Source of the DNA: Corynebacterium sp.
GTDB taxonomy: Bacteria > Actinomycetota > Actinomycetes > Mycobacteriales > Mycobacteriaceae
NCBI RefSeq assembly: GCF_030532965.1
Contig: NZ_JAUNKC010000007.1
Location: forward strand, 50,046 to 114,045
Reading direction: 5' to 3'
Length of the DNA stretch: 64,000 nt
Every line of letters starts with the position of its first letter. The first letter of the stretch is position 1. The notes beneath the pieces are model-generated. The model saw only the letters and a list, made by a program, of their open reading frames with translations. It was not told the DNA's origin and made no database searches. Positions 12,754 to 56,099 of the stretch are shown here, piece by piece. The translations under genes were made by a program, and so were the position numbers.

Positions 12754-13244
12754 TTGGCAAGCGATTCCGATAGAAAATGAAAAAGATCCCAACAGCTTTA
12801 CCCCCGCTAGAATCCGAAATTTCCACACACATTTTCGGTGCACATCGCCGCTAATCGACGCATATGCAAGTCGGCCCAAACAGTCAACCAGCCCGCACCC
12901 AGAGAGGGTAATTACCGTGCTAAATGGCCAAATTTTCCATCCTGTTATGTGAAGGTTCACATTAGCAAGACCTTAACCAAACCTCCATAAAAACCACCCA
13001 TCAGATGACCGAATATCACGAGCGATACACCACCCCCACGATCACAGATTTTTAAGCATTCTTGGTTGGATATTTCCACATTGCCCACCATGGGGCGTCG
13101 AAAAGCGAAAACCGCTGCAAAAATCTTGAATTTTTATTAACTTTAGATAGCTTAAAGCTAATTTATGTATGATAATTGCACTAGATTGCAGTTAATACAC
13201 ATCGGAGGAACCACACGTATGCGTCGCCTTTTCTGTCGTGCTGG

Positions 13245-13499
13245 ATGGCAGCCGCCCTCACATTCACGACAATCGTTCCCGCAGCTCACAGCGCCGAAAC
13301 CCCTCCGCAGCCCCGCAGCGCAAGCGCCACAACGTCCGCCCAAACAACGCCACCGGAGACGCAACGCCGCGGCCAAGACTTCGATCTGGGCACCATCATC
13401 AGCATCATTGTTAGCGTTGTCGCCAGCATCGGGGTATCGCTCATTGGGCTCGCTCCCCTGCTGAATTATTATCTGCAAAAACATCCCCGGTTTCGTTAG
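13245..13499 (+). CDS. Small (84 aa) Pro/Thr-rich protein with a signal-peptide-like N-terminus and a C-terminal TM helix. Start uncertain, possibly frameshifted relative to the ATG at 13219.
   Basis: Hydrophobic C-terminus IISIIVSVVASIGVSLIGLAPLL. AHSA-E cleavage-like site. A strong SD GGAGGA (13204-13209) serves the out-of-frame ATG 13219. Confidence 0.3.
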   Translation: MAAALTFTTIVPAAHSAETPPQPRSASATTSAQTTPPETQRRGQDFDLGTIISIIVSVVASIGVSLIGLAPLLNYYLQKHPRFR

Positions 13500-13552
13500 G
13501 GAAGACTAAAATCTCAAGGCACATATCACACGTCATGTGAAAGGCCGTCCGC

Positions 13553-14467
13553 GTGGATTCCGTCATTCGTCCCAACCTTAAAAACCTCGAATCGCCATTT
13601 GCCGAATTCGCCGCAGCAAATCTGCGCCGAACCACGAAGCTAACGCTTATACCCGTCACCACACCGCTCGCCGCTACCGCCTCACGCACTGGCAATACGG
13701 CGGCAGTGACGCCAAACCATCCGTGGCCCGTTGATTCCTCTGGCAACCCGATGCAGCATCTCGCGCAGCTTAACCTCGCCGAACTGCCCGCCCGAGAGGA
13801 ACTACCAACGGAAGGTTTGCTGCAGTTCTTCGTCACGGTGGATGACCACATGGGCACCACAAACGGTGCAACCCCCGACTACTCAGAAAGCGTCGTGCGC
13901 TACATTCCGGCAGCGGAACTAGAAACTGCCACCACCGAAACCCACGATCACGTCGCGAGCACCTTTTCCATCGACCAATTCACGATCACTGGTGCCCTCT
14001 ACGACCAGGCACCGCAATGCGGCGACTACCAGTTCAGCGCGGTAGCGGAACAGGCGGGCATTTACACAGAAGAAGAGGATTTCCTCGACTCCATCGGATT
14101 CTATGATGACGAAGACTTCGAGGACCTCGACGAAGAAGACGTCCTTGAAGAACACGGGTGGCAGGATCCACTTGACGCGCTAGCGGACGTCACCGACAAT
14201 TACGCTCAGCTTTTCCTCGGTGGCTGGACCCAGCACCCACAGCAAGATCCGCGCGGCTACCTCAACGACCAGAATTCACGGTACTTTCATCCGCATTTCC
14301 AAACCCAAAACATGCAGCTACTTCTGCAACTCGCATCCGTCACCGACCCCGCTACCGGTGCCCGCATCGATATTGGCCACGATGGGATTCTACACTTCTT
14401 CATCGGCGACAAAGATTTAGCCAACCTTGATTTCAGCACCCCACTGTACAGCTTTAGCACCCACTAG
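13553..14467 (+). CDS. DUF1963 (YwqG-like) domain protein, paralog 1.
   Basis: GTG start. The motif ...HPWPVDSSGNPMQHLAQLNLAELP...EGLLQFFV... matches the DUF1963 pattern (WP...P..F.AQINL.ELP...GLL.FF). Acidic linker. Confidence 0.65.
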   Translation: MDSVIRPNLKNLESPFAEFAAANLRRTTKLTLIPVTTPLAATASRTGNTAAVTPNHPWPVDSSGNPMQHLAQLNLAELPAREELPTEGLLQFFVTVDDHMGTTNGATPDYSESVVRYIPAAELETATTETHDHVASTFSIDQFTITGALYDQAPQCGDYQFSAVAEQAGIYTEEEDFLDSIGFYDDEDFEDLDEEDVLEEHGWQDPLDALADVTDNYAQLFLGGWTQHPQQDPRGYLNDQNSRYFHPHFQTQNMQLLLQLASVTDPATGARIDIGHDGILHFFIGDKDLANLDFSTPLYSFSTH

Positions 14468-14505
14468 TCCCCCGCCCATCCCGTGATCCTAAGGAATGCT
14501 TCGCC

Positions 14506-16676: not shown

Positions 16677-17114
16677 TTTTCCATGCTACGTAGCCAAACC
16701 CGCCATGAATCACGCGACCGAAATAAGTGAAACGGCGTTATTCGAATAACACATTGCTGCGATAACAATCGCACTGGCCAAGTGGGGTCGGGCAGCGAAT
16801 CCAGCATCCAATTCCGCAAGGTTTCAAACAGTTGCTTTACTAAACCCGCCACAAACTCGCGACTGGTAAAGAATACAACCGTGGCCCTAAAAGCCTTCCC
16901 TCGTAGTCCGTGCTAAAACCAATCCCCGCTACAAATTTGTCCCCGTATTTATCACGCAATGTTGAGATGATGAGACGCGGCTCTTGAGGCGTCGAAAAGC
17001 AAGAAACTTATCCATGCCACAGTGTGCGAACTGCTGCCAATGTGGCCTGGCTAACGCACTATTTATGCAGCTTAACCCTTTACCTTCCCACTATGCGGTG
17101 CTAGGTTTTAGGCT

Positions 17115-18260: not shown

Positions 18261-18280
18261 AAATAATGTAGATTTATGTC

Positions 18281-19429
18281 ATGAGCCGTGTACGCAATCC
18301 TTTCAAAGCCACATTGGGAGCAACCCCGCCATACCTTGCTGGTCGTGAACAAGAAATTGAAGACTTCAAGGATGCGCTTTTCGACGGCCCAGGCGCACAT
18401 GAACGAGTTTCCCTCATTACCGGCCTTAGTGGCGTGGGTAAAACTGTATTGCTTAATGCATTTCAAGATGTCGCACGAGCCGAATCTTGGTGGGTTATCG
18501 CCGAGACTGCAACCCCTGGTTTTACCCAACGCATTCAAGATGCAGCGTACCGGATCATCCAAGAGAACTTTCGCATCCACAAGAAAACTCTTACAGGTGT
18601 AAACATCGCCTCGCTAGGAGGCTTGCAGTTCACTGAGACAGAGAAATATCGTCCAAATACAACGTTACGGGATGTCCTCACGAATCTTTTCACGTTGCAG
18701 GCACATATTGATGCCCAAATTGGACAGGAACCTGTGGGAGTGCTTATCACCTTAGATGAGCTGCATTGTAACCGAAAAGAAGAAGTTATTGACTTCGGGG
18801 CGACCATTCAGCATTTGGTCCGTGAAAACTGCGAGATTGCCGTAACCATGGCAGGCATTCCACAATCCGTGAAACCACTTTTGGCGGCTGATTCTGGGCA
18901 AAATCCCGTAGCGTTCCTACGCCGCGCCAACAAAATTGCACTGGGGCTGGTCACTGATTCCGATGTCCGCACAGCCCTTTCGTCCCCGCTAGCCTCATTA
19001 GATTTCGAATGGGAACCAGGCGCACTAGATCTAGCTGTTGAGATTTGTGGCGGCTACCCATTCATGATTCAGCTGGTAGGCCAATACCTGTTCCGCACTC
19101 GGGACGGAAACCGCATAACCTTAGACTCGGTTACAGCAAGTGGTGAACGCGCCCGCCACCGTCTCGGCGAGTTGGTTCACGAACCTTCCCTTTCAGATCT
19201 CTCCCCCACGGATCAAGATTTTCTTAAAGCGATGGCAGTTGACGACGGGCCGTCCAAAATGTCCGATATTGCCCAGCGACTTAATGTTGACGCGCAATAC
19301 GCAGGCAACTACCGACGTCGTCTTTTAGACGCCGAAATCATCTCAAGCCCCCGCTACGGGTATGTCAGTTTCGCTTTGCCCTATATGCGGCAATACCTTA
19401 CATCACCGACCAATTCCACACACTTTTAA
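18281..19429 (+). CDS. AAA-type ATPase (Arch_ATPase-like P-loop NTPase) with a C-terminal winged-helix.
   Basis: Walker A GLSGVGKT. Walker B VLITLDELH. N-terminal NPF...YLAGREQE motif. C-terminal HTH-like region. Lower GC than flanking DNA. Confidence 0.7.
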   Translation: MSRVRNPFKATLGATPPYLAGREQEIEDFKDALFDGPGAHERVSLITGLSGVGKTVLLNAFQDVARAESWWVIAETATPGFTQRIQDAAYRIIQENFRIHKKTLTGVNIASLGGLQFTETEKYRPNTTLRDVLTNLFTLQAHIDAQIGQEPVGVLITLDELHCNRKEEVIDFGATIQHLVRENCEIAVTMAGIPQSVKPLLAADSGQNPVAFLRRANKIALGLVTDSDVRTALSSPLASLDFEWEPGALDLAVEICGGYPFMIQLVGQYLFRTRDGNRITLDSVTASGERARHRLGELVHEPSLSDLSPTDQDFLKAMAVDDGPSKMSDIAQRLNVDAQYAGNYRRRLLDAEIISSPRYGYVSFALPYMRQYLTSPTNSTHF

Positions 19430-20146: not shown

Positions 20147-20304
20147 TGCACGACAACCTCAGCATTGCGGTAAAAGTGTTCCCACGCAGGCGTTTCACTG
20201 TTCGTTCAACTAGTGCCGGGTGAGCTGCGCGATGCTTGTCGACGTAGCCAGAAGCCTTTTATAAAACCCCGCAGTATCTGCACTTTATTGTCATAATCGG
20301 ACCT

Positions 20305-22144: not shown

Positions 22145-22278
22145 AAGGCTCGTACACCCGACATTCGGTTCATAACAATGGTTCCGTGACAGATTGGTAA
22201 AACAGATACATTCTTAACAGTCAGTTCCAACTAAAACATTGAGTACAGCGAAACCCGTTAAAGCGTCGAAAAGCAAAA

Positions 22279-22325
22279 ACACTCGCCCGCATCCCCTTTT
22301 ATGTCGGGGGGCGGGCGAGTGTGTA
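22279..22325. terminator. Bidirectional rho-independent terminator shared by the convergent Abi gene and the S10 operon.
   Basis: ACACTCGCCCGC-loop-GCGGGCGAGTGT followed by GTAGTTTT on the + strand and TTTTTGCTTTTCG on the minus strand. Confidence 0.6.
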
Positions 22326-22354: not shown

Positions 22355-22633
22355 TTAGCGTGCCTTCTCGATGATCTCAACGAGACGGAAGTGCTTGTCC
22401 TTGCTCAATGGGCGGGTTTCCTCGATGCGAACGAGGTCGCCGATGCCAGCGATTTCGTTCTCGTCGTGAACCTTCACCTTGGAGTTGGTGCGGATGGTCT
22501 TACCGTACAAGCCGTGCTGCTTGCGGTCTTCCAATTCCACAACGATGGTCTTCTGCATCTTGTCGGAAACGACATAGCCGGTGCGTACCTTACGTGCGCC
22601 CTTTTTCTTCTTGTTCACGTTTGCCTCACTCAT
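22355..22633 (-). CDS. rpsQ: 30S ribosomal protein S17.
   Basis: Sequence identity to S17 ([19 protein letters not shown]...). Confidence 0.95.
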
Positions 22634-22635
22634 AA

Positions 22636-22866
22636 TTAAGCCTCAGCTCCCGGAACAACAGACAGGCCCAGCTCGCGCTCGCGAATAACGGTGTAGATGC
22701 GGGCGATGTCGGTCTTGACCGTGCGCAGGCGACGGTTATTGGTCAGCTGGCCGGTTGCAGCCTGGAAGCGCAGGTTGAACAGCTCTTCCTTGGCTTCAGC
22801 CAGACGGGTCTTGAGCTCCTCAGCGTTAAGCTCGCGAAGCTCGTGTGCGGGGGTACCGTTAGCCAT
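22636..22866 (-). CDS. rpmC: 50S ribosomal protein L29.
   Basis: [22 protein letters not shown]... The ATG overlaps the rplP stop (TAATG). The ORF-track N-terminal extension is rejected. Confidence 0.9.
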
Positions 22867-23282
22867 TAGAACTGGTCCTCCTTCTTGATAATACGAACCT
22901 TGCAAGGGAGCTTTTGGCCTGCGCGACGCAGTGCCTCAAGCGCCATTTCCTCATTCGGATAGCTCATTTCAAAGAGGATGCGACCTGGCTTGACGTTTGC
23001 GATCCACTTTTCCACAGGACCCTTACCGGAACCCATACGAACACCGAGTGGCTTCTGGGTAAGTGGCCGGTCTGGGAAAATGTTGATCCACACCTTACCA
23101 CCACGCTTGACGTGGCGGTTGATGGCGATACGTGCAGATTCGATCTGACGGTTGGTGATGTAAGCAGGTTCCAGAGCCTGGATTGCGTAGTCACCGAAGT
23201 TGATGCGGTTACCGCCCTTAGAAACGCCGTCACGGTGTGGACGGTGCTGGCGACGGTACTTCACGCGCTTTGGAATAAGCAT
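22866..23282 (-). CDS. rplP: 50S ribosomal protein L16.
   Basis: [15 protein letters not shown]... Confidence 0.95.
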
Positions 23283-23285
23283 AGG

Positions 23286-24032
23286 TTATCCCTCCTGCTT
23301 CTGCTCAGCACGCTGACGACGCTGGCCACCACGACGCGGACGTGCGTTGCGGTCACCGCGGCCACGGCGCTCTGCTGGTGCGTTGATTTCGCTCTCGCGA
23401 CGGCCACCAACGACGTCACCCTTGTAGATCCACACCTTCACGCCGATGCGGCCGAAAGTGGTGTGTGCTTCGTAGGTGCCGTAGTCGATTTCGGCGCGGA
23501 GAGTGTGCAAAGGAACGCGACCCTCATGGTAGCGCTCGGTGCGGGACATCTCGGCACCGCCAAGACGACCGGAGCACATAACCTTGATGCCCTTGACCTG
23601 TGGCTGACGCATAGCGCCCTGGATTGCCTTGCGCATTGCGCGACGGAATGCCACACGGTTGGTCAGCTGCTCAGCGATGGACTGTGCCACCAGTTGAGCG
23701 TTGGCGTCAATGTTCTTGACCTCGAGGATGTTGAGGGCGACCTGCTTGCCGGTGAGCTTCTCCAGCTCGCGGCGCAGACGGTCTGCCTCAGAACCACGGC
23801 GGCCGATCACGATGCCTGGACGGGCGGTGTGGATGTCGACGCGGACGCGGTCGCGGGTGCGCTCGATCACGATGTCGGCGATACCTGCACGGTCGAGGGT
23901 TTTGGTGAGGAACTCGCGGATCTTGATGTCTTCTGCGAGGTACTCAGCGTAGTTCTTATCGGCGAACCAGTGGGACTTCCAGTCGGAAGTGATGCCCAAT
24001 CGGAGGCCGTGTGGGTGGATTTTTTGTCCCAC
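23286..24032 (-). CDS. rpsC: 30S ribosomal protein S3.
   Basis: [20 protein letters not shown]... Basic Arg/Gly-rich C-terminal tail typical of actinobacterial S3. Confidence 0.95.
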
Positions 24033-24034
24033 TG

Positions 24035-24391
24035 TTATGCACCTGCCTTCTGGCTCTCGACAACCACGGTGATGTGGCTGGTGCGCTTACGGATCTGGAA
24101 TGCGCGACCCTGAGCGCGTGGACGGAAACGACGCATGGTTGGGCCTTCGTCGGCGTAAGCCTCGGAGATAACCAGGGTGCGACGGTCAAGGCCGAAGTTG
24201 TTCTCAGCGTTTGCAGCTGCGGACTGAACGACCTTGGCTACTGGCTCGGAAGCAGCCTGTGGGGCGTACTTCAGGATTGCCAGTGCTTCCTCAACGGACT
24301 TACCGCGAACCAAGTCGATTACACGGCGTGCCTTCATAGGGGTTACGCGAACGAAGCGGGCAGTCGCGCGTGCGGATGTGATTTCGCTCAT
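24035..24391 (-). CDS. rplV: 50S ribosomal protein L22.
   Basis: Sequence identity to L22. Confidence 0.95.
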
Positions 24392-24394
24392 CGC

Positions 24395-24673
24395 TTATCG
24401 ACGTCCCTTCTTCTTTTCTTGAATGTGACCCTTGAAGGTCTTGGTTGGTGCAAACTCACCGAGCTTGTGGCCGACCATGGAGTCGTCCACGAACACTGGC
24501 ACATGCTTGCGACCGTCGTGGACGGCGAAGGTGTGACCAATGAAGTCGGGGAGAATGGTGGAACGACGGGACCAGGTCTTAATAACCTGCTTGGTGCCCT
24601 TTTCGTTCTGAGCATCGACCTTCGCGAGGAGGTGCTCATCAACGAACGGGCCCTTCTTAAGGCTGCGTGGCAT
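24395..24673 (-). CDS. rpsS: 30S ribosomal protein S19.
   Basis: [16 protein letters not shown]... Confidence 0.95.
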
Positions 24674-24689
24674 CTTTCCTTACCTCCTC

Positions 24690-25532
24690 TTAGCGCTTCT
24701 TGCTCTTGTTCGTGCGGCGGCGCTGCACGATCATGTTGTTGCTGTACCGGTTCGGGTTGCGGGTGCGACCTTCCTTCTTGCCCCATGGGCTAACTGGGTG
24801 ACGACCACCCGAGGTCTTACCTTCACCACCACCATGTGGGTGATCCACTGGGTTCATGACCACACCACGCACGGTTGGGCGAACGCCCTTCCAGCGCATA
24901 CGGCCAGCTTTACCCCACCGGATGTTGATCTGATCGGCGTTGCCGACCTCACCAACGGTGGCGCGGCAGCGGATGTCCACGCGGCGGATTTCAGAGGAAG
25001 GCATACGCAGAACAGCGTACTTGCCTGCCTTACCGAGCAGCTGAATGGATGCACCTGCGGAACGGGCAAGCTTAGCGCCTGCGCCTGGCTTGAGCTCAAC
25101 GCAGTGGATGACGGTACCAGCTGGGATGTTCCGCAGCGGCAGGTTGTTACCAACCTTGATGTCGGCGGTTGCGCCGGACTCTACCATCTGACCCTGCTTG
25201 AGGCCCTTAGGTGCGATGATGTAGCGCTTTTCGCCGTCGACGTAGTGCAGCAACGCGATGTTGGCGGTACGGTTCGGGTCGTACTCGATGTGAGCAACCT
25301 TTGCCGGAATGCCATCTTTGTCGTTGCGACGGAAGTCGATCAGACGGTACTGGCGCTTGTGTCCACCACCCTTGTGGCGAACGGTGATGTGGCCGTGAAC
25401 GTTACGGCCACCCTTCTTTGGAAGTGGGCGAACCAGGGACTTCTCCGGGGTCGAGCGAGTGATCTCCTCGAACATCGATACGGAGCTCTGGCGGCGACCC
25501 GGGGTTGTCGGCTTGTACTTACGAATAGCCAT
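24690..25532 (-). CDS. rplB: 50S ribosomal protein L2.
   Basis: [14 protein letters not shown]... Confidence 0.95.
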
Positions 25533-25556
25533 AGTTTTTCCTTACCTCGACCTTTC

Positions 25557-25859
25557 TTAAGCGCTAGCGCCAAAGATGTCGATTGCGTCGCTGCCCTCAC
25601 GAAGCGTCACGTAGGCGCGCTTGGTTGCCTTGCGGGTACCGAAACCGGAGCGAGTGCGCTTGCGCTTGCCCTCACGGTTAAGGGTGTTCACGGAGGCGAC
25701 CTTCACACCGAAGATCTGCTCGACGGCAATCTTGATTTCGGTCTTGTTAGCGGTCTTTGCGACGAAGAACACGTAGGTGCCTTCCTCCATCAAACCGTAA
25801 GACTTCTCAGAGACAACCGGGGCGAGAATGATGTCGCGTGGGTCTGCAATCTTAGCCAT
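25557..25859 (-). CDS. rplW: 50S ribosomal protein L23.
   Basis: Sequence identity to L23. Confidence 0.95.
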
Positions 25860-26512
25860 TAGTTCTCCTCCTTATCCGCACCGGTAGCGCGGGCGATAAA
25901 GGCGGTGAGAGCCTCGACCGAGAACACAACGTCATCGGACTTGAGAACGTCGTAGGTGTTCAGCTGATCCTGGAACAGGATGTGAACGTTAGGTAGGTTA
26001 CGAGCACTCTTCTGCGAATTGATGTCCTCACGACCAACGACGAACAGAACGTTACGACGATCGGTCAGGCGCTCGATGAACGCGCGTGCGGACTTAGTAG
26101 AAGGAGTCTGACCAGGAACCAGTTCCTCGACCACGTGGATGCGTGCGTTACGAGCACGGTCCGACAGTGCACCGTACAGAGCGGCCTTGATCATCTTCTT
26201 CGGGGTGCGCTGGCTGTAATCGCGTGGCTTAGGGCCGTGTGCGATACCACCACCAGCGAAGTGAGGAGCGCGGATCGAACCCTGGCGAGCGCGACCGGTG
26301 CCCTTCTGGCGGAATGGCTTGCGGCCACCGCCACGAACTTCACCACGAGTCTTGGTGGAGTGGGTGCCCTGACGCTTTGCAGCGAGCTGAGCGTTGACAA
26401 CCTGGTGCATCAACGGGATGGAGACTTCGCGGTCGAAGATCTCAGCTGGCAGTTCAACGGTGCCGTTGGTCTTGCCCTCAGCGGTCTGGACGTCCAATTT
26501 CAGATTGGTCAT
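25859..26512 (-). CDS. rplD: 50S ribosomal protein L4.
   Basis: Sequence identity to L4. Confidence 0.95.
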
Positions 26513-27165
26513 GCGTGTGCACCGCCCTTCACTGCGGTCTTAACAGTAACGATGCCGCCACGGTTGCCCGGGATTGCACCCTTGATCAGGATGAGGTTGG
26601 CATCGGCGTCGATCTTTTGAATCTTAAGATTCTGGGTGGTGACGCGATCGGAACCCATGCGGCCAGCCATGCGCTTGCCTTTGAAGATGCGACCTGGGGT
26701 AGCGCAGGCACCGATGCCACCGACGCGGCGGTGTGCTGCCTGGTTACCGTGGGATGCACCCTGACCGGCGAAGCCGTGGCGCTTCATGCCACCAGCGAAG
26801 CCCTTACCCTTGGAGGTGCCGGTAACGTCAACGAAGGTGATGCCTTCGAAGATGTCAACGGTGACATCCTGGCCGACCTCGTAGCCGGAAACGTCATCCA
26901 TGCGGATTTCGGCTACATGGCGGCGTGGGGTAACGCCTGCTTTATTGAAGTGACCGGTGCGTGGCTTGTTTACCTTGCGAGGGTCAATGTCGCCGTAGGC
27001 GATCTGGATGGCGTTGTAGCCATCGGTTTCTACAGTGCGAATCTGGGTAACTACGCATGGACCAGCCTCGACGACGGTTACTGGGATGACCCGGTTTTCC
27101 TCGTCGAAGATCTGAGTCATGCCGAGCTTGGTGCCCAGAATGCCCTTGATCTCAGTTTCACTCAT
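26509..27165 (-). CDS. rplC: 50S ribosomal protein L3.
   Basis: Sequence identity to L3. Confidence 0.95.
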
Positions 27166-27197
27166 TATTTGTTCTCCGTAGCCAAGAAACTCGTCGA

Positions 27198-27503
27198 TTA
27201 CTTAATGTCCACATCGACGCTGGCCGGAAGGTCAATACGCATAAGCGCTTCAACCGTCTTCGGCGTCGGGTCGAGGATGTCGATCAGGCGCTTATGAGTG
27301 CGCATCTCGAAGTGCTCGCGAGAATCCTTGTACTTGTGTGGGGAACGAATAACGGCGTATACGTTCTTTTCGGTTGGCAATGGCACTGGGCCCACAACGC
27401 GTGCCCCGGCACGGGTCACGGTTTCGACAATCTTACGTGCAGCCACGTCGATTGCCTGGTGGTCGTAAGCCTTCAGGCGAATGCGGATCTTTTCTCCCGC
27501 CAC
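27198..27503 (-). CDS. rpsJ: 30S ribosomal protein S10.
   Basis: GTG start at 27503 ([15 protein letters not shown]) preceded by SD AGGAAGAGGA. The ORF-track ATG 27530 extension is unlikely. Confidence 0.9.
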
Positions 27504-27876
27504 GCTTATCCTCTTCCTCGCTTGTCCCACATCGCAAATGGAGTGGTGGGAATCGCTTCATCTATCTCTATAACGTTGTCCGGACCAGTTTTAAGGGCCT
27601 AAAGCGCAACGCCAGTTCTTAACTTGACTTGTCTTAAAACGACTTGCCGGAAACGCTTAAGGTCAAAGCAAATAAACTTTCACCGCATTTCCTTGAAGCT
27701 TCCACCCCTGGGGTACAAGACCCAGATGTGTGCCAAGCCGGAAGGGATCTTAATGCTCGTGATAAGCGTGGGATCTCTTTCGTATACTGCCGCTGTTTAT
27801 TTGCCATGCTCTTCACTTTTCCGGCCCTCAAGGTATGAACTGGATATCGCCCAGAAACCTTGAAGGTCCTTCCATG

Positions 27877-40945: not shown

Positions 40946-40950
40946 TTAGA

Positions 40951-41685: not shown

Positions 41686-42414
41686 CTATAGCAGACTAGC
41701 CGCACATAATGCCGCCGGGTAGATCAGCATGATTATTGGATGTGGCCAGGTCGAAGTCTCACCAAGGTTCTCGGTTCGATAGTGGAGGAAAATAACACCG
41801 ACCGCAGGGCTGATGCCGAAAGAAGCACCAACGAGTGCGGCTGTCATCATCATGGTGTTTTCCCGGCCATGAAGGTAGTGGAAAATGAGGAAAAGGGCGA
41901 TGAGTACCACGCCGGTGTAGACGAAACTCAATCGCAGCCCAATGTTAAACAGAACCGCCCACATCAGCGCGGCCACTACCACCGCAGCCATGGCGGCGAC
42001 ATAGCTGGTACGCGGCTTGGTTTTAAGGTGAGTATCGGCGGCCGCGATGATGAAACATAAAACGGTCGCCCAGATAAAGTTCTGGCTTTTCATGTCGATA
42101 AACGTTCCGCTGATGGCGAGGTCATAGGCAATTTCGGTGATGATGCTTAGCCCGACCAAAACGCCCAATAACCGCAAGCTCAGGCCGAAGCGTTGAAAAC
42201 TTGTGAAGAGCAGGAAGGCCACGATTGGCAGTGCCGCCCAACTGACGAGTTCGATGAGGATGACGGCGGTGAGCGTCGAAAAGCTAGCGGCGGAAACGTC
42301 GGCGACGGTGTGCTTTTCCGCAACGATCGCGCATACCTGCGCCAGCAAAAACACGCCGGTGAGCACGAAGTAGGCCGGAATTTTAAAGCCAGATGGTGAA
42401 GCGGTATTGGTCAT
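41686..42414 (-). CDS. Integral membrane protein (7-8 TM), family unknown.
   Basis: 242 aa, almost entirely hydrophobic helices. Confidence 0.5.
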   Translation of the reverse strand: MTNTASPSGFKIPAYFVLTGVFLLAQVCAIVAEKHTVADVSAASFSTLTAVILIELVSWAALPIVAFLLFTSFQRFGLSLRLLGVLVGLSIITEIAYDLAISGTFIDMKSQNFIWATVLCFIIAAADTHLKTKPRTSYVAAMAAVVVAALMWAVLFNIGLRLSFVYTGVVLIALFLIFHYLHGRENTMMMTAALVGASFGISPAVGVIFLHYRTENLGETSTWPHPIIMLIYPAALCAASLL

Positions 42415-44796: not shown

Positions 44797-44875
44797 GAGG
44801 AGCATTTAGCTTTTCGACGCTTCCCGCGCCGTCCGCAACCAGTGGCGACAAGCGTCGAAAAGCTAAGTGCTCCTC
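44797..44875. repeat. Long inverted repeat with 24-nt arms GAGGAGCATTTAGCTTTTCGACGC / GCGTCGAAAAGCTAAGTGCTCCTC (1 mismatch, 31-nt spacer) between malF-like and malE-like genes. It contains the dispersed GCGTCGAAAAGC motif.
   Basis: Arms at 44797-44820 and 44852-44875. Seen directly. Confidence 0.65.
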
Positions 44876-46838: not shown

Positions 46839-48437
46839 ATGACCAATTTCCCATCACCGCGATTCCCCCTCCCAGACTGGTTGGAATCAGCGGTTTTCTA
46901 CGAGATCTATCCACAAAGCTTCTACGACACCAATGGCGATGGCATTGGTGACTTGCCCGGGATCACCGCGAAGCTGGATTACTTGAAAGAACTGGGTATC
47001 ACCGCACTGTGGTTGAACCCCATTTTCGACTCGCCGTTTAAAGACGCAGGTTACGACGTGCGCGACTACTACACCATCGCGGAGCGCTACGGCAACCATT
47101 CCGACTTTAAAGAGCTGCTCGTCCAAGCACACATGCGCGATATTCGGGTGCTGTTGGATCTTGTACCCGGGCATACCAGCGAACAACACCAGTGGTTTCA
47201 GCGCAGCGCCGAGGTGGAACCCAATGAGTTTTCTAACCGGTACATCTGGACTTCCCATGCCTTCGACAACGGGGCTGGCCTGCCGTTTATCGGCGGTGAA
47301 TACGACCGCAATGGCACCTATATTTTGAATTTCTTCAAATCCCAACCCGCCCTCAATTACGGGTTCAACCACAAGGATCGCCCCTGGCAACAGGACATTT
47401 CCGCAGCAGGCCCACTAGAAAACCGCAAGGCGATGGCAGAGGTCATGCGCTACTGGTTGTCCTTGGGCTGCGACGGTTTCCGGGTAGACATGGCCGATTC
47501 CTTGGTCAAGTTCGATGGCGAGGACAAACCGTGCACGATCACCGTCTGGCAGGACATTTTCGCCCAGGTGCGGACGGACTTCCCCGAAGCTGCTTTCGTC
47601 TCCGAATGGGGCAAACCGTGGCAGGCGTTGGACGCGGGTTTCGACATGGACTTCTATCTCGACTGGCCCCGCAATGGCTATAACCTCTTGCTACGCGATA
47701 CCGATGACCACTTCGGTGGCACCGATACCAGCTATTTTGCCACGGACTCCGACACCCCAGCCGATGTATTCTTCGACTGCTATCTCCCGCAGGAATCGGC
47801 AGCCCGCGAGCGCGGCGGGTTCTTTTCCCTGATTTCGGGAAATCACGACACCCCACGGGTAGCTCCCCGACTATCGGAGGAGGAACGGAAGCTGTTCTTC
47901 CTCTTCTTGCTCACCATGCCAGGCGTGCCGTTTATCTATTACGGCGATGAAATTGGGATGCGGTACCTGGATGTGCCGACCACCGAGGGCGGCTATGCCC
48001 GCACCGGTTCCCGCAGCCCCATGCAGTGGGACAGCGAGGCGGAGAACTTCGGCTTCTCCACCGCCGATGCTGAGCAGTTGTATATTCCGGTCGATCCGGA
48101 CCCGGCAGCGCCTAGCGTCGACAAGCAAATCGGCGTGCCGGAAAGCATGCTAGAAACGGTCCGGGACTTTATCAGCTTGCGCCGCAAGCACAAGGCGCTG
48201 CAGGCGTCAGGCGGTTTCGAGCGGTTAAGCACCGTTAATCCACGGTGCATGGCTTATCGACGCTGGACGGACGCGCAAGAAATCACCATCATCATCAACC
48301 CCGGCAATACGCAATTGACCGAGCCCGCATCGCGCGGCTGGCCGACCGCCGCAATTGGTGGCGCGACGATCGACGATACGGTTGTGACGTTGCCGCCGAC
48401 CTCGGCGATCGTTATCAGCCACAACCATTCGGCTTAA
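46839..48437 (+). CDS. GH13 alpha-glucosidase (oligo-1,6-glucosidase/trehalose-6-P hydrolase-like).
   Basis: Start MTNFPSPRF... GH13 regions AVFYEIYPQSF, GFRVDMAD, the catalytic nucleophile region, and NHD. Confidence 0.8.
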   Translation: MTNFPSPRFPLPDWLESAVFYEIYPQSFYDTNGDGIGDLPGITAKLDYLKELGITALWLNPIFDSPFKDAGYDVRDYYTIAERYGNHSDFKELLVQAHMRDIRVLLDLVPGHTSEQHQWFQRSAEVEPNEFSNRYIWTSHAFDNGAGLPFIGGEYDRNGTYILNFFKSQPALNYGFNHKDRPWQQDISAAGPLENRKAMAEVMRYWLSLGCDGFRVDMADSLVKFDGEDKPCTITVWQDIFAQVRTDFPEAAFVSEWGKPWQALDAGFDMDFYLDWPRNGYNLLLRDTDDHFGGTDTSYFATDSDTPADVFFDCYLPQESAARERGGFFSLISGNHDTPRVAPRLSEEERKLFFLFLLTMPGVPFIYYGDEIGMRYLDVPTTEGGYARTGSRSPMQWDSEAENFGFSTADAEQLYIPVDPDPAAPSVDKQIGVPESMLETVRDFISLRRKHKALQASGGFERLSTVNPRCMAYRRWTDAQEITIIINPGNTQLTEPASRGWPTAAIGGATIDDTVVTLPPTSAIVISHNHSA

Positions 48438-50353
48438 GCGGAGATTTGCTCCAGCACAACGAGCCGCAGCGGCGGAACGACGAATTCGTGGCTTAATGCA
48501 ATATCCACGGGTTCGTCGGATACCGAGCCGTCGTTGATATGCACGCGGTACTTACCGGCGGTTACCGGGTGCGACCAGTGATTGCAATTGGCGTTGACCA
48601 GGACGATCGCATCGCGATTCTTGCCAAAACCGTCAGTCACCCGGAAGCTTAAGTGCAGGCCTTCGGCGTGAACCAAGTGCGAGGAGGACTTGATCTGTTC
48701 GTAGTCCGACTGACGCATCCACTGATACTTCTGTCGGAAGCGATTGAGGTCGCGCACGAATTTCGTTTCGTTAGCGAAGGTGGCCGCGCGGTCGTAATCG
48801 AAGCAGTTGATCGAGTCTGGGCTTCGGTACGAATTCTCGTCACCGTACTTGGTGCGAAGGAATTCCTGACCGGCATGGAGGAACAAGATACCCCGCCCCA
48901 CGTACTGCAAGCTAGTCGCCAACGTGTGGCGCTTGGCAATGTCATCGTCGCTGGCCCACACCAGGGTGCGAGTGCCCCGCAGCTTATCAAACATGGTCCA
49001 GTTATCGTGCGCTTCGTTGTAGATAACGGACTGCGCCGCCTCCAAATAACCGCGGTTCGCTGGCGCGCCGAGCAGGGCGTCGAAAAGCGCACCGGCGCTC
49101 GACTGGGCGCAGTCCATGGCACCGGCACAACCCGAGACGAAGCCGGGGTCGGAAGCCGTGAAATTGGACCCCTTGACAATATCGCGGTAGAAGTCGTTGA
49201 ACATGCCTACCCGTGGCATGAGATGCCCATTGCCCTGGTGCGCGCCCAGAACGCCTTCCGGGTGATTGCCCATGGCCCACCCTTCGCCGATCACGATGAT
49301 GCCCGGATCGATCTCATCCAGCGCGGCACGCACCGCATTCATGGTGTCCACATCGTGGATTCCCATGAGGTCGAAGCGGAAACCATCAAGGCCGAAGGTC
49401 TTGGCCCAGTACACCACCGAATCCACGATGTATTTACGCATCATGAGCTGCTCGGACGCGGTTTCGTTACCGCAGCCGGTGGCGTTGTGGAAGTTACCGT
49501 CCGCGTCCATCCGGAAATAATAGCCCGGCACGGTGCGCTGCAGCGGCGAGTTTTCGGTCTCGTAAACATGGTTGTACACCACGTCCATGATTACCCGCAG
49601 CCCACGGGAATGCAGGGCATCGACCATCTGCTTGAATTCGGCCACCCGTGACACAGGGTTCGCCGGGTCGGTGGCGTAGGAGCCTTCCGGCACGTTGTAA
49701 TGCACCGGGTCGTAGCCCCAGTTGTATTGGGAATCGAAGGAGAGATCCCCCACCTCGTCCACGGAACCGAAATCGAAAATCGGCAGCAACTGCACGTGGG
49801 TGATTCCCAAGCCGGACAGATAATCCAAGCCCGAGGGGTTATTGTGGCTGGTGCGGGTGCCTGGCTCGGTGAGCCCCAAAAACTTACCCTTGTGGGTGAT
49901 GCCGTTTTCGGGCGAGATCGTCAGATCCCGCACGTGCGCTTCGTAGATGATGGCGTCAGAGGCGTGCTCGAAGCTAGGTAGCCGGTGCGCCTGCCCGATA
50001 AGCTTGTCGACGTTTATAACGACGCCGCGCTCACCGTTTGCGGTGACGGACCGGGCGTAGGGGTCGACCGATTCCACGCGTTTTCCGTCCGGGAACGTCA
50101 ACTGGTAGGTGTATTCCACCAGATCCGTGTCACCGGAAACGAACAATTCCCACTGCCCACGATCGCCGCGCGTCATGAGGTAGGAGCCGATGGCCGGACC
50201 GGTGTGCAGAATCAGTTCCACGGATTGTGCGGTGGGCGCCCACAACCGGAACGTGGTGCCCGCTTCAGCGTGGATGGCACCGAGTTCGCCATCAAAGAAA
50301 AACCGCTCGTTAAACTCAGCGGAATGCAAATCCACATGACTATAGGTTTGCAT
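48434..50353 (-). CDS. GH13 pullulanase-type debranching enzyme (CBM48 N-terminus).
   Basis: YNWGYDP motif. GFRFDLMG. 639 aa. Confidence 0.8.
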   Translation of the reverse strand: MQTYSHVDLHSAEFNERFFFDGELGAIHAEAGTTFRLWAPTAQSVELILHTGPAIGSYLMTRGDRGQWELFVSGDTDLVEYTYQLTFPDGKRVESVDPYARSVTANGERGVVINVDKLIGQAHRLPSFEHASDAIIYEAHVRDLTISPENGITHKGKFLGLTEPGTRTSHNNPSGLDYLSGLGITHVQLLPIFDFGSVDEVGDLSFDSQYNWGYDPVHYNVPEGSYATDPANPVSRVAEFKQMVDALHSRGLRVIMDVVYNHVYETENSPLQRTVPGYYFRMDADGNFHNATGCGNETASEQLMMRKYIVDSVVYWAKTFGLDGFRFDLMGIHDVDTMNAVRAALDEIDPGIIVIGEGWAMGNHPEGVLGAHQGNGHLMPRVGMFNDFYRDIVKGSNFTASDPGFVSGCAGAMDCAQSSAGALFDALLGAPANRGYLEAAQSVIYNEAHDNWTMFDKLRGTRTLVWASDDDIAKRHTLATSLQYVGRGILFLHAGQEFLRTKYGDENSYRSPDSINCFDYDRAATFANETKFVRDLNRFRQKYQWMRQSDYEQIKSSSHLVHAEGLHLSFRVTDGFGKNRDAIVLVNANCNHWSHPVTAGKYRVHINDGSVSDEPVDIALSHEFVVPPLRLVVLEQISA

Positions 50354-50819: not shown

Positions 50820-51920
50820 CTAGCTGGGCAGCCGATTGGTGGTAGCTGCGGAGAAGTTATGCTGCCCACCTTCAGTGACCTGAACGTGAACAACGGTTCC
50901 TGGCTCCGGCGCGATATTCGGCAGCGCCCGCACGACGATCTGCTGCCGTTCGCCCTCAACACCGGTGATGTGCCCGTAGAGGTAGGAATCGGAACCGAGC
51001 TCCTCCACGAAATCGAGCTTCATCGGAATGGTATTGGTACCAGCTTCCACCAATTCCAGGGATTCCGGCCGGAAACCGATGATGATCTTTCCGCCGTCCT
51101 CGGCGGTAACCGCATTGCGTGTTACTTCCGAGACTGGGATGCGGGCATCGCCCAGGGTCGCTACACCGTCAGCACCTAAATCGAAGGTGAAAATGTTCAT
51201 GGCTGGCGAACCGATGAATCCGGCGACGAAGACGTTGGTCGGCTCGTCGTAAAGCTCCCGAGGTGCGCCTACCTGCTGCAAATAACCATCTTTCAACACC
51301 GCGATCCGATCCCCCATGGTCAGCGCTTCCGTCTGGTCGTGGGTGACGTACAGGGTTGTGACGCCGAGTTCCCGCTGCAAGGACGCAATCTGGGTGCGGG
51401 TTTGCACGCGAAGCTTCGCGTCCAAGTTGGACAACGGCTCGTCCATCAAGAACACCTGCGGCTTACGCACGATAGCGCGACCCATGGCAACACGCTGACG
51501 CTGACCACCGGAGAGCGCTTTCGGCTTACGGTCGAGGTACGGAACCAGATCCAGCGTCAACGCCGCAGCCTCAACTCGCTTGTTGATTTCTTCGGCATTT
51601 ACGCCAGCAATCTTGAGCGCAAAGCCCATGTTTTCCCGCACGGTCATGTGGGGATACAGCGCGTAGTTCTGGAACACCATGGCGATGTCGCGTTCCTTAG
51701 GCGGCGCGGCGGTGACGTCTTTATCGCCGATCAAGATGCGGCCGGACGTCACATCCTCCAGGCCAGCCAGCATGCGCAAAGTGGTGGATTTACCGCAACC
51801 AGAAGGCCCAACCAGAACCAGGAATTCACCGTCTGCGATTTCCAGGTCGAACTTATTAACGGTTGGTGCTTTTGCCCCGGGATAGACCAGAGTGGCGGCT
51901 TCGTAGGTGACAGATGCCAT
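50820..51920 (-). CDS. Sugar ABC transporter ATP-binding protein (MalK/MsiK family).
   Basis: [18 protein letters not shown]-terminal TOBE regulatory domain. 366 aa. Confidence 0.85.
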
Positions 51921-52183
51921 GTCGTTTTCTCCTCCATCGGCAGGTACGTGCCGAACGATCCGTAGTGGGAACTATCTGGGAACGTGCAATCGTTTGCTAA
52001 TCAACGACTGCCCTAATCACTAAAGCTAGCACCCTGTTTCCCGCTTCCGCCAATTTCAGATCACAGCACCCCACCCCGTGTAATCCAGGCCACTTATCGC
52101 CCCAATTTCTAGCTATCCGTATATAGGGAACTCAGGTATATTTGGAACTATCTGTCCGAACCACACACCTGATTGCGACCATA

Positions 52184-53614: not shown

Positions 53615-54394
53615 TTAATTGCTAAAGGCACCGCTGCCGCCCCGGCGCGCCTGACGGATCATCGCGGAATACAAAACCACCCCGATCAGCGCCCATCCGC
53701 AGCCCACCGCGCATTCCAATAAGACGTGCGGCATCACCGATTGGCCTGAGATCAGCGCCCGTAACCCGGTGATGGCGTGCTGGCCCGGCAATACCGAGCC
53801 GATGGCGTTGAGGATTGGGAAAGAGGCTAGTGAGAAAAACGCTCCTGAGCACACCACCGCCAGGGATGCCACCGCGTTGTGGATGAGGTTTTGGAAGGTG
53901 TTGCCGATGGCGAAGGCGGCGATTGTCAGTCCGCACATGAGCGCGCTGAGCAGCACCGGGAGGGTGACCCACCAGGAGGTGAGGACGTCGAAAAGCAGTG
54001 CCTTCTCCCCCAGTAACGGTGCAAGGACGCAAACGGCAAGGATCGAATCCACGGCGGCGAGGAGAAGGAGCGGTATACAGCGGATACTGTAGCGCAGCAA
54101 GGCCACTGCGCCGCCGGTAAGTAGCGGTCCGGTTACCTGAAACATGGAGTCGCGGACCGGAATGTCGGTGACTTCGCTTAGTGCCGCGCGGTACATGGCT
54201 ACGACCGCTATGCCCACGATCGCGACCGGGATGGCCGCCCGGCCGCCTGCTACCACGGCGAATAGGAGGAACATTGTCATGCGGCACAGCTCGGGAATTA
54301 TGTGGGCTACAACCAGCACCGACCAGGGTCGTTCCGCCCGTTCTATCTGTATTCCTAACCTCAGTTCGGAGGCTACGAGCGTTTTAAAACTCAA
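53615..54394 (-). CDS. ABC-2 family transporter permease.
   Basis: 6 TM. In an operon with the upstream ATPase. Confidence 0.6.
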   Translation of the reverse strand: MSFKTLVASELRLGIQIERAERPWSVLVVAHIIPELCRMTMFLLFAVVAGGRAAIPVAIVGIAVVAMYRAALSEVTDIPVRDSMFQVTGPLLTGGAVALLRYSIRCIPLLLLAAVDSILAVCVLAPLLGEKALLFDVLTSWWVTLPVLLSALMCGLTIAAFAIGNTFQNLIHNAVASLAVVCSGAFFSLASFPILNAIGSVLPGQHAITGLRALISGQSVMPHVLLECAVGCGWALIGVVLYSAMIRQARRGGSGAFSN

Positions 54395-55148
54395 GGGAAC
54401 CCACCGCCTTTGCCCGGTGGAGCAGCACCCTGATCGCGCGGTGGGCGAGGCCGACGTACACCGCGGAAAGCGCCAGCCCGATGGCCAAAGCTGTCCACTG
54501 CGGCTGGGTGGTGGTAGAGACCAGAAATTCCCTCAGCCAGCGTAGATTCACCACCACGCTGAGAAACCGCAATGGGGTGGGCAATAATTCCACCGGGATA
54601 ACGAAGCCGCCTAATAGCAGCAGGGGCGGCCCGGCGGCGGCCGTTAGGTAGAACGCCCGACGGCTGAGGATTACGGCACAACCCAGGAGCATGCTGGCCG
54701 CGCCGCCGCCGATAAATACTGCGATCAGCGCTAACACAAAAGCCGGTGGTTGGTCGATGTCCATACTTAGGCCGAAAATTTTGAGGAAGCTGAAACTGGC
54801 GATGAGAATAAGTGCCATGTCGTAACTCATCGCGGCGCAGGTTTTGACGGCGGTGATAAGGGTGGGTGAATACCGTGCGGTGAAGGTGCTTGCCATCATG
54901 CCGGTCCAGATATCTCGGCGCAGCACCCCGGCAGCGCTCCATATCGCTGCGCTCCACAGCGCGGCCAGGATCGACGAGCTAAACGCCGTGGTTACGGCCG
55001 AAGGGTCGAGGGAATCGAGGCGTTGAAACGTCATCAGTGCCAGGAATAGCCAGGGGAATACGATCCCGGTTGCGATATTCATGGGGCGGCGGATGACCAT
55101 CGCGATTTGCGTCCAAAAGATGGGGATCAAGCAGCGGATTGTCGTCAT
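54384..55148 (-). CDS. ABC-2 family transporter permease.
   Basis: 6 TM. Overlaps neighbouring genes. Confidence 0.6.
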   Translation of the reverse strand: MTTIRCLIPIFWTQIAMVIRRPMNIATGIVFPWLFLALMTFQRLDSLDPSAVTTAFSSSILAALWSAAIWSAAGVLRRDIWTGMMASTFTARYSPTLITAVKTCAAMSYDMALILIASFSFLKIFGLSMDIDQPPAFVLALIAVFIGGGAASMLLGCAVILSRRAFYLTAAAGPPLLLLGGFVIPVELLPTPLRFLSVVVNLRWLREFLVSTTTQPQWTALAIGLALSAVYVGLAHRAIRVLLHRAKAVGSLEF

Positions 55149-55157
55149 GGCGCTTCC

Positions 55158-56099
55158 TTAGCTTTTCTGGTCGAAATACGCCGCGAATGATTCATCTAAG
55201 GTCGCGCTGCGCACCACAACATCCAGCACACCGGGGACGGCATGGACCTGCGAAATTATTGCCACGGATTCCGCGCCCCAATCGGGGAGTTTCACGCTTA
55301 ATTGGTAGTAGCCGTGCTCGATCGGCGTTGTTGCTACCGGTTGCGGTATTCCCGCCAGTTCGCTTTTCGACGCCTCCGGCACCGTCGCGGTCACCACCGC
55401 CGTGAAACCGGCGAGTTTCCGAAATTCCGCCACGCTGCCGGTCATCCGAATCGCCCCGTCGTCCAATAACACCACCCGATGCGCCAGCGCCTCTACGTCA
55501 TGCAGATTATGGGAGGTGAGCAGTACGGTGGTGCCTGATTGCACCGAGGCGGCTACTGATTCTCGAAGCCGCTGCGCTTCGACTGGATCGAGGCCGACGG
55601 TTGGTTCGTCCAGCAACATCACCGGTGCCTGCTTCAACATGCCAGCCGCGATATGAAGGCGTTGTTTCATTCCTTTGGAATATTGTTCCACCGGCCGATC
55701 TTGGGATAGTTCTAAACCCACCGCCTGCACCGCCTCCGTTATCCGCGATCGAGCGTTCTTTCCGGCCAGCCCTGCTAAGGCGGCGTGGTAGCGTAAGTTT
55801 TCGCGTCCGCTGAGCATGGGATAGAAGCCACGATCCCCGCCAAAAACCGCGCTGGCTACGGCGCGGGCGTGTTCCGGATGCGCTGTGACATCCTTTCCCA
55901 TGATCCGGGCGGTCCCAGAGCTGGGCAGTAGGAGTGTCGCAAGGATTTTCGTCAGCGTCGTTTTGCCTGCGCCGTTTTTACCTAATGAGGCCACGCATTC
56001 GCCCACCGACACCGACAGGTCAACGCCAGTCAAGGCGGTGACCACGGTGCCATTGTGGTTGAAGGTTCTGCTTAGGTTGTCAACGTCGATGGCAAACAT
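55158..56099 (-). CDS. ABC transporter ATP-binding protein (ABC-2/DrrA-like exporter ATPase).
   Basis: Walker A GKNGAGKTT. LSGG-like KGMKQRL. Walker B LLDEPT. Confidence 0.8.
   Translation of the reverse strand: MFAIDVDNLSRTFNHNGTVVTALTGVDLSVSVGECVASLGKNGAGKTTLTKILATLLLPSSGTARIMGKDVTAHPEHARAVASAVFGGDRGFYPMLSGRENLRYHAALAGLAGKNARSRITEAVQAVGLELSQDRPVEQYSKGMKQRLHIAAGMLKQAPVMLLDEPTVGLDPVEAQRLRESVAASVQSGTTVLLTSHNLHDVEALAHRVVLLDDGAIRMTGSVAEFRKLAGFTAVVTATVPEASKSELAGIPQPVATTPIEHGYYQLSVKLPDWGAESVAIISQVHAVPGVLDVVVRSATLDESFAAYFDQKS

Follow-up and report, generated by a model that had tools for sequence, protein, structure and literature searches.

The 64-kb window considered here (64,000 nucleotides of contig NZ_JAUNKC010000007.1 from a Corynebacterium sp.) comprises the S10 and str ribosomal operons, sugar and oligopeptide ABC transporter genes and, dispersed across genes and spacers, 30 copies of the short word CGTCGA-N-AAGC (CGTCGANAAGC), in which position 7 is free. 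An earlier note on this DNA had singled out the A variant of the word, CGTCGAAAAGC, as an over-represented dispersed motif ("at least 9" copies, with 11 listed). The over-representation is real and large, and the count was too low: the window contains 15 exact copies of CGTCGAAAAGC, against 0.04 on average and at most 1 in dinucleotide shuffles and an expectation of 0.06-0.36 under Markov models of orders 1 to 5 trained on the window sequence itself, the excess thus holding within the window through the higher-order backgrounds that the note had proposed as a check. When position 7 is left free, the 30 copies compare with 0.37 expected under an order-3 Markov model.

Copies of the word in the window

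The base at position 7 is A in 15 copies, C in 10, G in 3 and T in 2, the C variant (CGTCGACAAGC) being the second commonest 11-mer of the window in a k-mer census. The unit is a non-palindromic 11-mer, of which the C variant only includes the palindrome GTCGAC; GGGGCGTCGAAAAGCAAA is the motif-bearing oligonucleotide form of the word. The other positions are nearly invariant, with a few one-mismatch variants confined to positions 6 and 11, including the position-6 variant CGTCGTAAAGC, present four times (1590, 16382, 19613 and 51245). The flanks display a composition bias, purine- and G-rich (RRG) on the 5' side and A-rich on the 3' side, apart from which those of every copy are distinct, and sequence likeness among copies ends by ~16 nt. 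The word has therefore not spread as one duplicated segment, an origin that the earlier note had raised and that the differing flanks rule out. All the copies listed in that note are real, whereas four had been missed (2049(-), 6250(-), 18376(-) and 42274(+)) and three coordinates need adjustment: 44810 corresponds to 44809-44819(-), 49088 is the end of 49078-49088(+), and 55375 corresponds to 55362-55372(-). Two of its three partial copies, at 40454(-) and 63211(-), are one-mismatch forms (CGTCGAAAAGT), whereas the third, at 57365, retains only TCGAAAAGCGCC.

Table 1. Positions of the word, its variants and its inverted pairs in the window
Position	Strand	Feature	Context
887-897	+	CGTCGACAAGC (C variant)	coding
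2049-2059	-	CGTCGAAAAGC	coding, antisense phase L-F-D
5094-5104	+	CGTCGAGAAGC (G variant)	coding
6250-6260	-	CGTCGAAAAGC	kinase gene, phase V-E-K
7054-7064	+	CGTCGACAAGC	coding
11835-11845	-	CGTCGACAAGC	ABC ATPase gene, phase V-D-K
13096-13106	+	CGTCGAAAAGC	intergenic, 52 nt beyond 3' end of ORF 13158-13484(-)
16990-17000	+	CGTCGAAAAGC	intergenic, downstream of DUF6138 gene
18376-18386	-	CGTCGAAAAGC	STAND NTPase gene, antisense phase L-F-D
20234-20244	-	CGTCGACAAGC	intergenic
22264-22274	+	CGTCGAAAAGC	intergenic, 5 nt before hairpin 22280-22321, between Abi_2 gene and rpsQ
24393-24403	-	CGTCGATAAGC (T variant)	end of rpsS (CGT CGA TAA) adjoining rplV start
28011-28065		inverted pair 1	copies 28014(+) and 28052(-)
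31293-31303	+	CGTCGAAAAGC	oligopeptide ABC ATPase gene, phase V-E-K
33530-33540	-	CGTCGAGAAGC	coding
36442-36452	-	CGTCGACAAGC	~150 nt downstream of tuf stop, past tuf terminator
39415-39425	+	CGTCGAGAAGC	fusA
40454-40464	-	CGTCGAAAAGT (one mismatch)	~15 nt past rpsG stop
42274-42284	+	CGTCGAAAAGC	coding, conserved in C. mustelae
44797-44875		inverted pair 2	copies 44809(-) and 44853(+), conserved in C. mustelae
48116-48126	+	CGTCGACAAGC	alpha-amylase family gene, conserved in C. mustelae
48252-48262	-	CGTCGATAAGC	coding, not conserved in C. mustelae
49078-49088	+	CGTCGAAAAGC	coding, antisense phase L-F-D; one mismatch in C. mustelae
50002-50012	-	CGTCGACAAGC	coding, conserved in C. mustelae
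53986-53996	+	CGTCGAAAAGC	coding, antisense phase L-F-D
55362-55372	-	CGTCGAAAAGC	ABC ATPase gene
60443-60453	+	CGTCGACAAGC	response regulator gene
60781-60791	-	CGTCGACAAGC	histidine kinase gene
63089-63099	+	CGTCGACAAGC	coding, phase V-D-K
63211-63221	-	CGTCGAAAAGT (one mismatch)	coding

Two of these copies deserve caution. The T variant at the rpsS/rplV junction (24393) recurs in most Corynebacterium loci, inflating the T-variant count by one per locus, and is to be discounted because it forms the conserved end of rpsS; it is probably a conserved coding coincidence and not a true member. Membership of the fusA copy (39415) is doubtful, because it is not kept in more distant species.

Genes were called with a simple map of open reading frames (ORFs), corrected by hand around the ribosomal operons. 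Inside ORFs there are 22 copies of CGTCGANAAGC, compared with 0.82 on average and at most 4 over 300 rounds of synonymous-codon shuffling within genes, which keeps the protein and the codon usage of each gene, and with 0.29 expected after shuffling of codon order within ORFs; the coding copies are therefore not a coding artefact, and codon usage is ruled out as their source by both shuffles. In the first gene map, 24 copies fell in ORFs, 12 in sense and 12 in antisense orientation, 15 of them in a favoured codon phase that reads xxC GTC GAN AAG Cxx (V-E/D-K) or, as its complement, xxG CTT NTC GAC Gxx (L-F/V/L-D). A reading-phase bias of this kind is the pattern described for uptake sequences in PMC2817400. 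Three of the ORF assignments are weak and better read as intergenic, namely those of 28014 and 28052, which lie in a dubious ORF of low GC content at third codon positions (GC3), and that of 36442, which precedes the true start of a methylase gene according to the gene calls of C. mustelae. After this correction, and with 42274 taken as coding, the A-variant copies divide into 7 of 15 within ORFs and 8 intergenic, so that intergenic DNA is over-represented in a window of which ~92% is ORF. The majority of intergenic copies sit shortly past gene 3' ends, as at ORF 13158-13484, the DUF6138 gene, the rpsQ and tuf terminators and the sugar-binding-protein gene.

The two strands are balanced, with 17 copies of CGTCGANAAGC on the forward and 13 on the reverse strand. 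The window is inverted relative to the C. mustelae DSM 45274 genome (CP011542; PMC4566179), in which the region maps to 0.43-0.45 Mb of 3.39 Mb; with a right-replichore placement, which assumes that the CP011542 record begins at the replication origin, the inferred leading strand carries 13 copies and the opposite strand 17. Across 13 corynebacterial str-operon loci, oriented on rpsL or on a fusA or tuf match, 39 copies are on the gene strand and 34 on the other. Strand bias, intergenic bias and spacing relative to gene ends, which the earlier note had proposed to measure, thus come out as balance, intergenic excess and a preference for positions past 3' ends. When each inverted pair is counted as one site, the 27 resulting sites are spaced more evenly than random (coefficient of variation 0.52, P ~1e-4), and the largest gap is 5.1 kb (P = 0.009).

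Inverted pairs, relatives and mobile DNA

Inverted pairs had been claimed at two sites; both are confirmed and fold strongly, at -28.6 to -54.4 kcal/mol with z of -4.5 to -8.9, varying by pair and strand. Pair 1, located ~500 nt upstream of rpsJ in the gap before an oligopeptide permease gene, comprises GGGCGTCGAAAAGC, a 27-nt spacer and GCTTTTCGACGCCC, with arms of 14 nt. Pair 2 lies in an ABC operon between the sugar-binding-protein gene and a permease gene, its arms extending over 26 nt with one mismatch, and not over the 24 nt first given, around a 27-nt spacer, with a folding energy of -54 kcal/mol. The spacers of the two pairs are unrelated to each other; the pairs are therefore not copies of one mobile element. 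A copy or pair 500-700 nt upstream of rpsJ recurs in other loci (16153 in L086, 13272 in L091 and 14888 in L092, next to 28014/28052 in the window), differing in orientation and in position-7 variant between species. The placement of a single copy beside the S10 terminator also stands (22264; Table 1), the strong hairpin that follows it being read as a putative bidirectional terminator.

Beyond the window, C. glutamicum carries a tight pair right after the fusA stop, with an 11-bp stem and a 5-nt loop, and a metagenome scan yielded 59 loci with convergent motif pairs. In motif-rich contigs of ~59% GC the stem is typically followed, on one strand, by a run of T, as in intrinsic terminators, and pairs in high-GC contigs without further copies look like chance. 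Judged by their sequence, the inverted pairs of the window, of the C. glutamicum fusA-tuf interval and of the metagenomes appear to make terminator-type hairpins. A simple terminator scan did not flag the window pairs, because their loops exceed 8 nt, and no inverted pair was found in the viral contigs searched for one. About 30 host-associated metagenome contigs (L095-L153; ~59% GC) share two orthologous motif-pair hairpins and carry 5-8 copies per 10-14 kb, corresponding to a very motif-rich Corynebacterium-like species. Rfam 15 and tRNA scans of the window gave no match at motif sites; the only Rfam match, unrelated to the motif, is an msiK RNA (RF01747, 55.5 bits, full length) at 51923-51979(-), directly upstream of an msiK-like sugar ABC ATPase gene at 50820-51920(-).

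The window species is close to C. mustelae, given that its ribosomal protein S12 is identical to that of C. mustelae DSM 45274, that the two DNAs are 76-94% identical over shared gene order, and that one Logan contig is 99.6% identical to the window. Comparison with related species, also proposed in the earlier note, discloses the word, with variants, in many Corynebacterium. The loci compared extend over ~20 kb each around fusA, tuf or a response-regulator gene, were found via EF-G (at least six corynebacterial loci), EF-Tu and response-regulator homologues, and represent 17 species or metagenome-assembled genomes (MAGs), mostly at the str/S10 operons; they are named here after the titles and protein names of their source records. 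The word is enriched ~15-110-fold in 14 corynebacterial samples (the window and 13 loci), the order-3 Markov expectation for Corynebacterium loci being 0.002-0.01 copies per kb. Its density per kb reaches 0.47 in the window, 0.42 in C. glutamicum, 0.39 in C. mustelae, 0.35 in Corynebacterium MAG S18M_Sa_4 (L005), 0.33 in both C. pseudotuberculosis and C. testudinoris, 0.31 in C. callunae, 0.28 in C. efficiens, 0.24 in C. diphtheriae, 0.13-0.22 in C. glucuronolyticum, C. felinum, canis-like and durum-like loci and L009, and 0.09 (two copies) in Corynebacterium sp. ACRPO (L007); it is zero in C. urealyticum, L156 and L008. Across 74 other actinobacterial loci (1.49 Mb; Rhodococcus, Nocardia, Mycobacterium, Gordonia, Micrococcus and others) 14 copies compare with 17.4 expected, i.e., no enrichment. 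An alternative repeated word considered for motif-poor species, CTGCTGGGTAA, proved to be orthologous conserved coding sequence.

At position 7 the window favours A and C; C. mustelae, L005 and C. callunae favour A; C. diphtheriae, C. pseudotuberculosis, C. testudinoris and the canis-like and durum-like loci favour T; and C. glutamicum is mixed. With small counts of 3-4 per locus, such "dialects" between species are a lead only. The position-6 variant CGTCGTAAAGC may constitute a further dialect: it occurs three times in the 23-kb locus L009, from an 'Actinomycetes bacterium' MAG that lacks the A variant.

Individual copies are maintained between species. Seven A- or C-variant sites can be aligned with C. 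mustelae, and over these 75 of 77 motif bases agree, an A/C swap at the free position accounting for one of the two mismatches, whereas the flanking 300 nt are 78-94% identical (mean ~86%); a rough Poisson estimate gives ~11 differences expected in 77 bases against the 2 observed (P near 1e-3). The C. mustelae site orthologous to 36442 reads CGTCGAAAAGC and is intergenic there. The copy ~15 nt past the rpsG stop is kept in three species, being perfect in C. mustelae, with one mismatch in the window, and in a tight hairpin with a degenerate partner in L005.

Plasmid and phage DNA is nearly free of the word. The conjugative-type plasmid pCmus45274 of C. mustelae (39.9 kb) contains no copy, compared with ~15 at chromosomal density, and the C. 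glutamicum phages P1201 (first 50 kb) and BFK20 (43 kb) contain none and one, respectively, compared with ~35 in these 93 kb at the density of the C. glutamicum locus; plasmid and phages together hold one copy in 133 kb. The word is a practical marker separating chromosomal from plasmid and phage DNA in this clade. Within the window itself, the segment 13100-22200, which adjoins the 3' end of the S10 operon, is a probable accessory or defence island; it has lower GC3 and encodes two DUF1963 proteins, DUF6138 and an alpha/beta hydrolase, together with an AAA_16/nSTAND1 NTPase (GC3 0.49) and a protein of the Abi_2 abortive-infection type (GC3 0.43).

Candidate functions

In what follows, the properties of uptake sequences and of Chi, as well as statements on competence genes in Corynebacterium, are general knowledge unless a paper is cited. 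The observed abundance, strand symmetry, coding phase, intergenic excess, hairpins, even spacing, maintenance, clade range and scarcity in mobile DNA rank first a role as an uptake or self-recognition sequence, similar to the DNA uptake sequence (DUS) of the Neisseriaceae and the uptake signal sequence (USS) of the Pasteurellaceae, and we tentatively favour this role for CGTCGA-N-AAGC. The earlier note had drawn the same parallel, and all the sequence-level signatures covered here support it, whereas the DUS and USS core sequences themselves are not matched. The word shares with that class its copy excess, strand balance, hairpin pairs and a clade-limited range with scarcity in mobile DNA, and is best explained as a chromosome-wide, lineage-specific "self" word of one large Corynebacterium group; we infer that a protein reads it and that the process served is DNA uptake. 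A broader proposal, possible at a lower level of confidence, is that CGTCGA-N-AAGC tags a cryptic, sequence-specific system of DNA uptake or self-recognition in a large part of Corynebacterium, the industrial workhorse C. glutamicum and the C. diphtheriae group included, with a receptor unrelated to ComP and with species-specific position-7 dialects that would channel genetic exchange. To our knowledge, such a tag would be the first uptake sequence outside the Proteobacteria and the first in a Gram-positive mycolic-acid bacterium.

Compared to the DUS of Neisseriaceae (AT-GCCGTCTGAA and its dialect forms, for which the minor pilin ComP is the reader), the word is alike in being non-palindromic, within 10-12 nt, equally frequent on both strands and present in an implied hundreds to thousands of copies, in combining coding copies with enriched intergenic ones, in its terminator-like inverted pairs, in varying slightly between related species ("dialects") and in its rarity in the plasmid and phage DNA sampled here. 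It differs in that CGTCGANAAGC has no CTG core, in its density (~0.3-0.5 per kb versus ~1 per kb for DUS) and in its host, a Gram-positive, mycolate-walled actinobacterium for which the searched literature shows neither a ComP homologue nor competence. With the USS of Pasteurellaceae (core AAGTGCGGT or ACAAGCGGT, with AT-rich flanks) it shares the order of density, even spacing, reading-phase preference, pairs as terminators, at least two subtypes per family and a flank composition preference, here A-rich on the 3' side; it differs in its unrelated sequence, in its phylum and in having one free internal position instead of a long AT-rich extension. The word does not belong to the DUS or USS sequence families, because both sequence and taxon differ: it lacks GCCGTCTGAA (or a CTG-core dialect), AAGTGCGGT and ACAAGCGGT. 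It would rather be an uptake-signal-like element in a phylum and envelope type with no known one. The signature of uptake sequences in Neisseriaceae and Pasteurellaceae is also treated in PMC1939737, PMC2817400 and PMC5217627.

Under the uptake model, a DNA-binding component of an uptake or recombination pathway would prefer fragments bearing the word, the likeliest actinobacterial route being Tad-pilus/ComEA/ComEC, as in Micrococcus luteus. Repeated conspecific uptake and recombination would then raise the word to ~1 copy per 2 kb on both strands, and the same process would keep existing copies intact; coding copies would settle in the least costly reading phase, foreign replicons would stay without the word, and inverted-pair hairpins would be co-opted as terminators or mRNA stabilisers, as with DUS and USS. 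According to PMC6667448, M. luteus is the only well-studied case of competence described within the Actinobacteria, a model that uses Tad rather than type IV pili; no actinobacterial route has been characterised other than its Tad pilus, acting with ComEA and ComEC.

Several observations weigh against uptake. Literature searches brought up no account of natural competence in Corynebacterium, not even for C. glutamicum with its long record of study, and among the Pfam and NCBIfam matches of the window genes none points to competence, a pilus or an evident DNA receptor. In the probable accessory island (13-22 kb), which looks foreign, the word keeps its normal density (5 copies in 9 kb, four of them intergenic); recently imported foreign DNA would not show this, unless it came from a motif-bearing relative. 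The word is carried by C. pseudotuberculosis, which we take to be a largely clonal species. Outside the window the sampling amounts to ~20 kb per species, from which the genome-wide figures are extrapolated. Finally, the even spacing and the depletion in plasmid and phages fit a site for a chromosome-structuring or self-marking protein equally well.

The main rival to uptake is accordingly a dense array of binding sites, one needed every few kb, at which a chromosome-associated protein would act (for instance to structure the nucleoid, in segregation or repair, or to mark self against non-self), an intracellular role unrelated to uptake that we regard as somewhat unlikely. It would account for the even spacing with no gap above 5.1 kb, for a word present on the chromosome and nearly absent from plasmid and phages, independent of strand and gene orientation and conserved at individual sites, and for a clade-specific range, as a lineage-specific protein would have, in a genus without known competence. 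On the other hand, Noc, SlmA, MatP and ParB use tens of sites compared with the ~1000 or more implied here, and the specificity of abundant nucleoid proteins is degenerate, unlike a word with 10 fixed bases; in addition, the position-7 shift between species resembles DUS dialects, and the strong coding phase bias is the pattern described for uptake sequences in PMC2817400. The clade-restricted excess with gradual variant drift, the raised frequency of one-mismatch variants at positions 6, 7 and 11, and the scarcity in phages and plasmid, which spend less time under host processes, could also reflect a functionless by-product of sequence-biased mutation, repair, gene conversion or a selfish converting endonuclease in the clade. 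Such an origin is improbable: an undirected bias predicts neither even spacing nor near-perfect orthologous copies in flanks of 78-94% identity, and lytic phages use host repair systems yet lack the motif. Moreover, the known repair biases, Vsr among them, target 4-5-mers rather than words of 11 nt.

A building block of terminators or of other RNA-level structures, with coding copies incidental, is more improbable still. In its favour are the strong folding of the inverted pairs, the pair between binding-protein and permease genes of an ABC operon (in E. coli, the malE-malF spacer is a position of REP elements), the tight pair after fusA in C. glutamicum, the T run after the stem in many metagenomic pairs and the single copies adjoining the rpsQ and tuf terminators; however, just 4 of 30 copies are in pairs and 22 of 30 lie in mapped ORFs, equally in sense and antisense and without a hairpin partner. 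A stem is not bound to a fixed sequence, so that termination by itself fails to account for a word with 10 invariant bases or for its enrichment at the level of codons. For a polar signal, Chi-like (AdnAB/RecBCD; Chi being, e.g., GCTGGTGG) or KOPS-like (FtsK-orienting polar sequences), the chromosome-specific excess and a frequency of ~1 per 2-4 kb, near that of Chi in E. coli, are as expected. Known Chi and KOPS sites are 5-8 nt long and skewed to the leading strand, whereas the Corynebacterium word shows no replication-strand skew; the 13:17 split in the window and the 39:34 split in the 13 str-operon loci exclude a signal of this type, and a rough estimate places 13 or fewer of 30 copies at P of order 1e-4 under the ~75% bias of E. 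coli Chi, leaving such a role scarcely any probability. Equally remote is a REP/MITE-type mobile repeat or a transcription-factor half-site, both of which the earlier note had entertained and neither of which is supported. Some copies do form intergenic inverted pairs, and the hairpin at 44797-44875 shares with the REP/BIME elements of E. coli malE-malF its location between binding-protein and permease genes. Those elements are extragenic imperfect palindromes mobilised by RAYT transposases, in contrast to a word that is mostly single, non-palindromic and genic (22 of 30 copies in mapped ORFs, or 19 without the three weak assignments), whose likeness ends by ~16 nt, whose two pairs have unrelated spacers and whose sites have no Rfam match; REP, BIME and REPIN membership, which entails extragenic imperfect palindromes of 20-40 nt, is thus rejected. 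An operator is rejected as well, operators numbering tens of sites in promoters, versus ~0.47 per kb here, with intergenic copies downstream of genes; 30 sites per 64 kb, mostly inside genes, are far too many for a regulon.

A further known element, cyanobacterial HIP1 (GCGATCGC), is likewise short and lineage-specific, occurs in huge excess both within genes and between them, and has a function that is unreadable from its letters. HIP1 differs in being an 8-bp palindrome tied to orphan methyltransferases (PMC4390886), whereas the word described here is non-palindromic. Searches across 8 million full texts, made with the motif strings and on the subject of uptake sequences in either Corynebacterium or the Actinobacteria, returned no description of the motif, only primers; the 10-mer is present in several primer sets for C. 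glutamicum, in keeping with how common it is in that species.

If CGTCGA-N-AAGC does serve uptake or self-recognition, natural transformation would be predicted in a genus regarded as non-competent, and a mechanism might be at hand for homologous recombination in C. diphtheriae, which is reported to be frequent. The 11-mer on donor DNA could then improve or target genetic manipulation of C. glutamicum, and a contrast of species rich in the motif (glutamicum, diphtheriae, mustelae) with those free of it (urealyticum) could guide the hunt for a receptor. If the word instead marks sites of a chromosome-organising or self-marking protein, these would form a new, very dense and highly specific class of sites in Actinobacteria. 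On either reading, since the word extends to C. glutamicum and to the C. diphtheriae group, the idea can be put to the test at once in a model organism that is easy to work with.

Other genes of the window

The S10 operon (rpsJ to rpsQ, 22355-27530(-)) ends at the strong terminator-like hairpin and is not followed by an spc operon. It is parted from the str operon (rpsL-rpsG-fusA-tuf, 36600-41322(-)) by a 9-kb oligopeptide ABC transporter cluster, and the gene content of the tuf-rpsJ interval is different in every Corynebacterium species sampled. Directly downstream of tuf, a gene with TSNR_N and SpoU domains (35593-36400(-)), of the thiostrepton-resistance-type rRNA 2'-O-methyltransferase family, occupies the same place in C. 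mustelae. The segment 2397-12687(-) comprises an L-fucose/rhamnose-type utilisation cluster, including (i) an aldehyde dehydrogenase, (ii) a LacI-family regulator, (iii) a rhamnulokinase-like kinase, (iv) a three-gene sugar ABC transporter, and (v) an L-fucose isomerase (982 bits to the FucI model).

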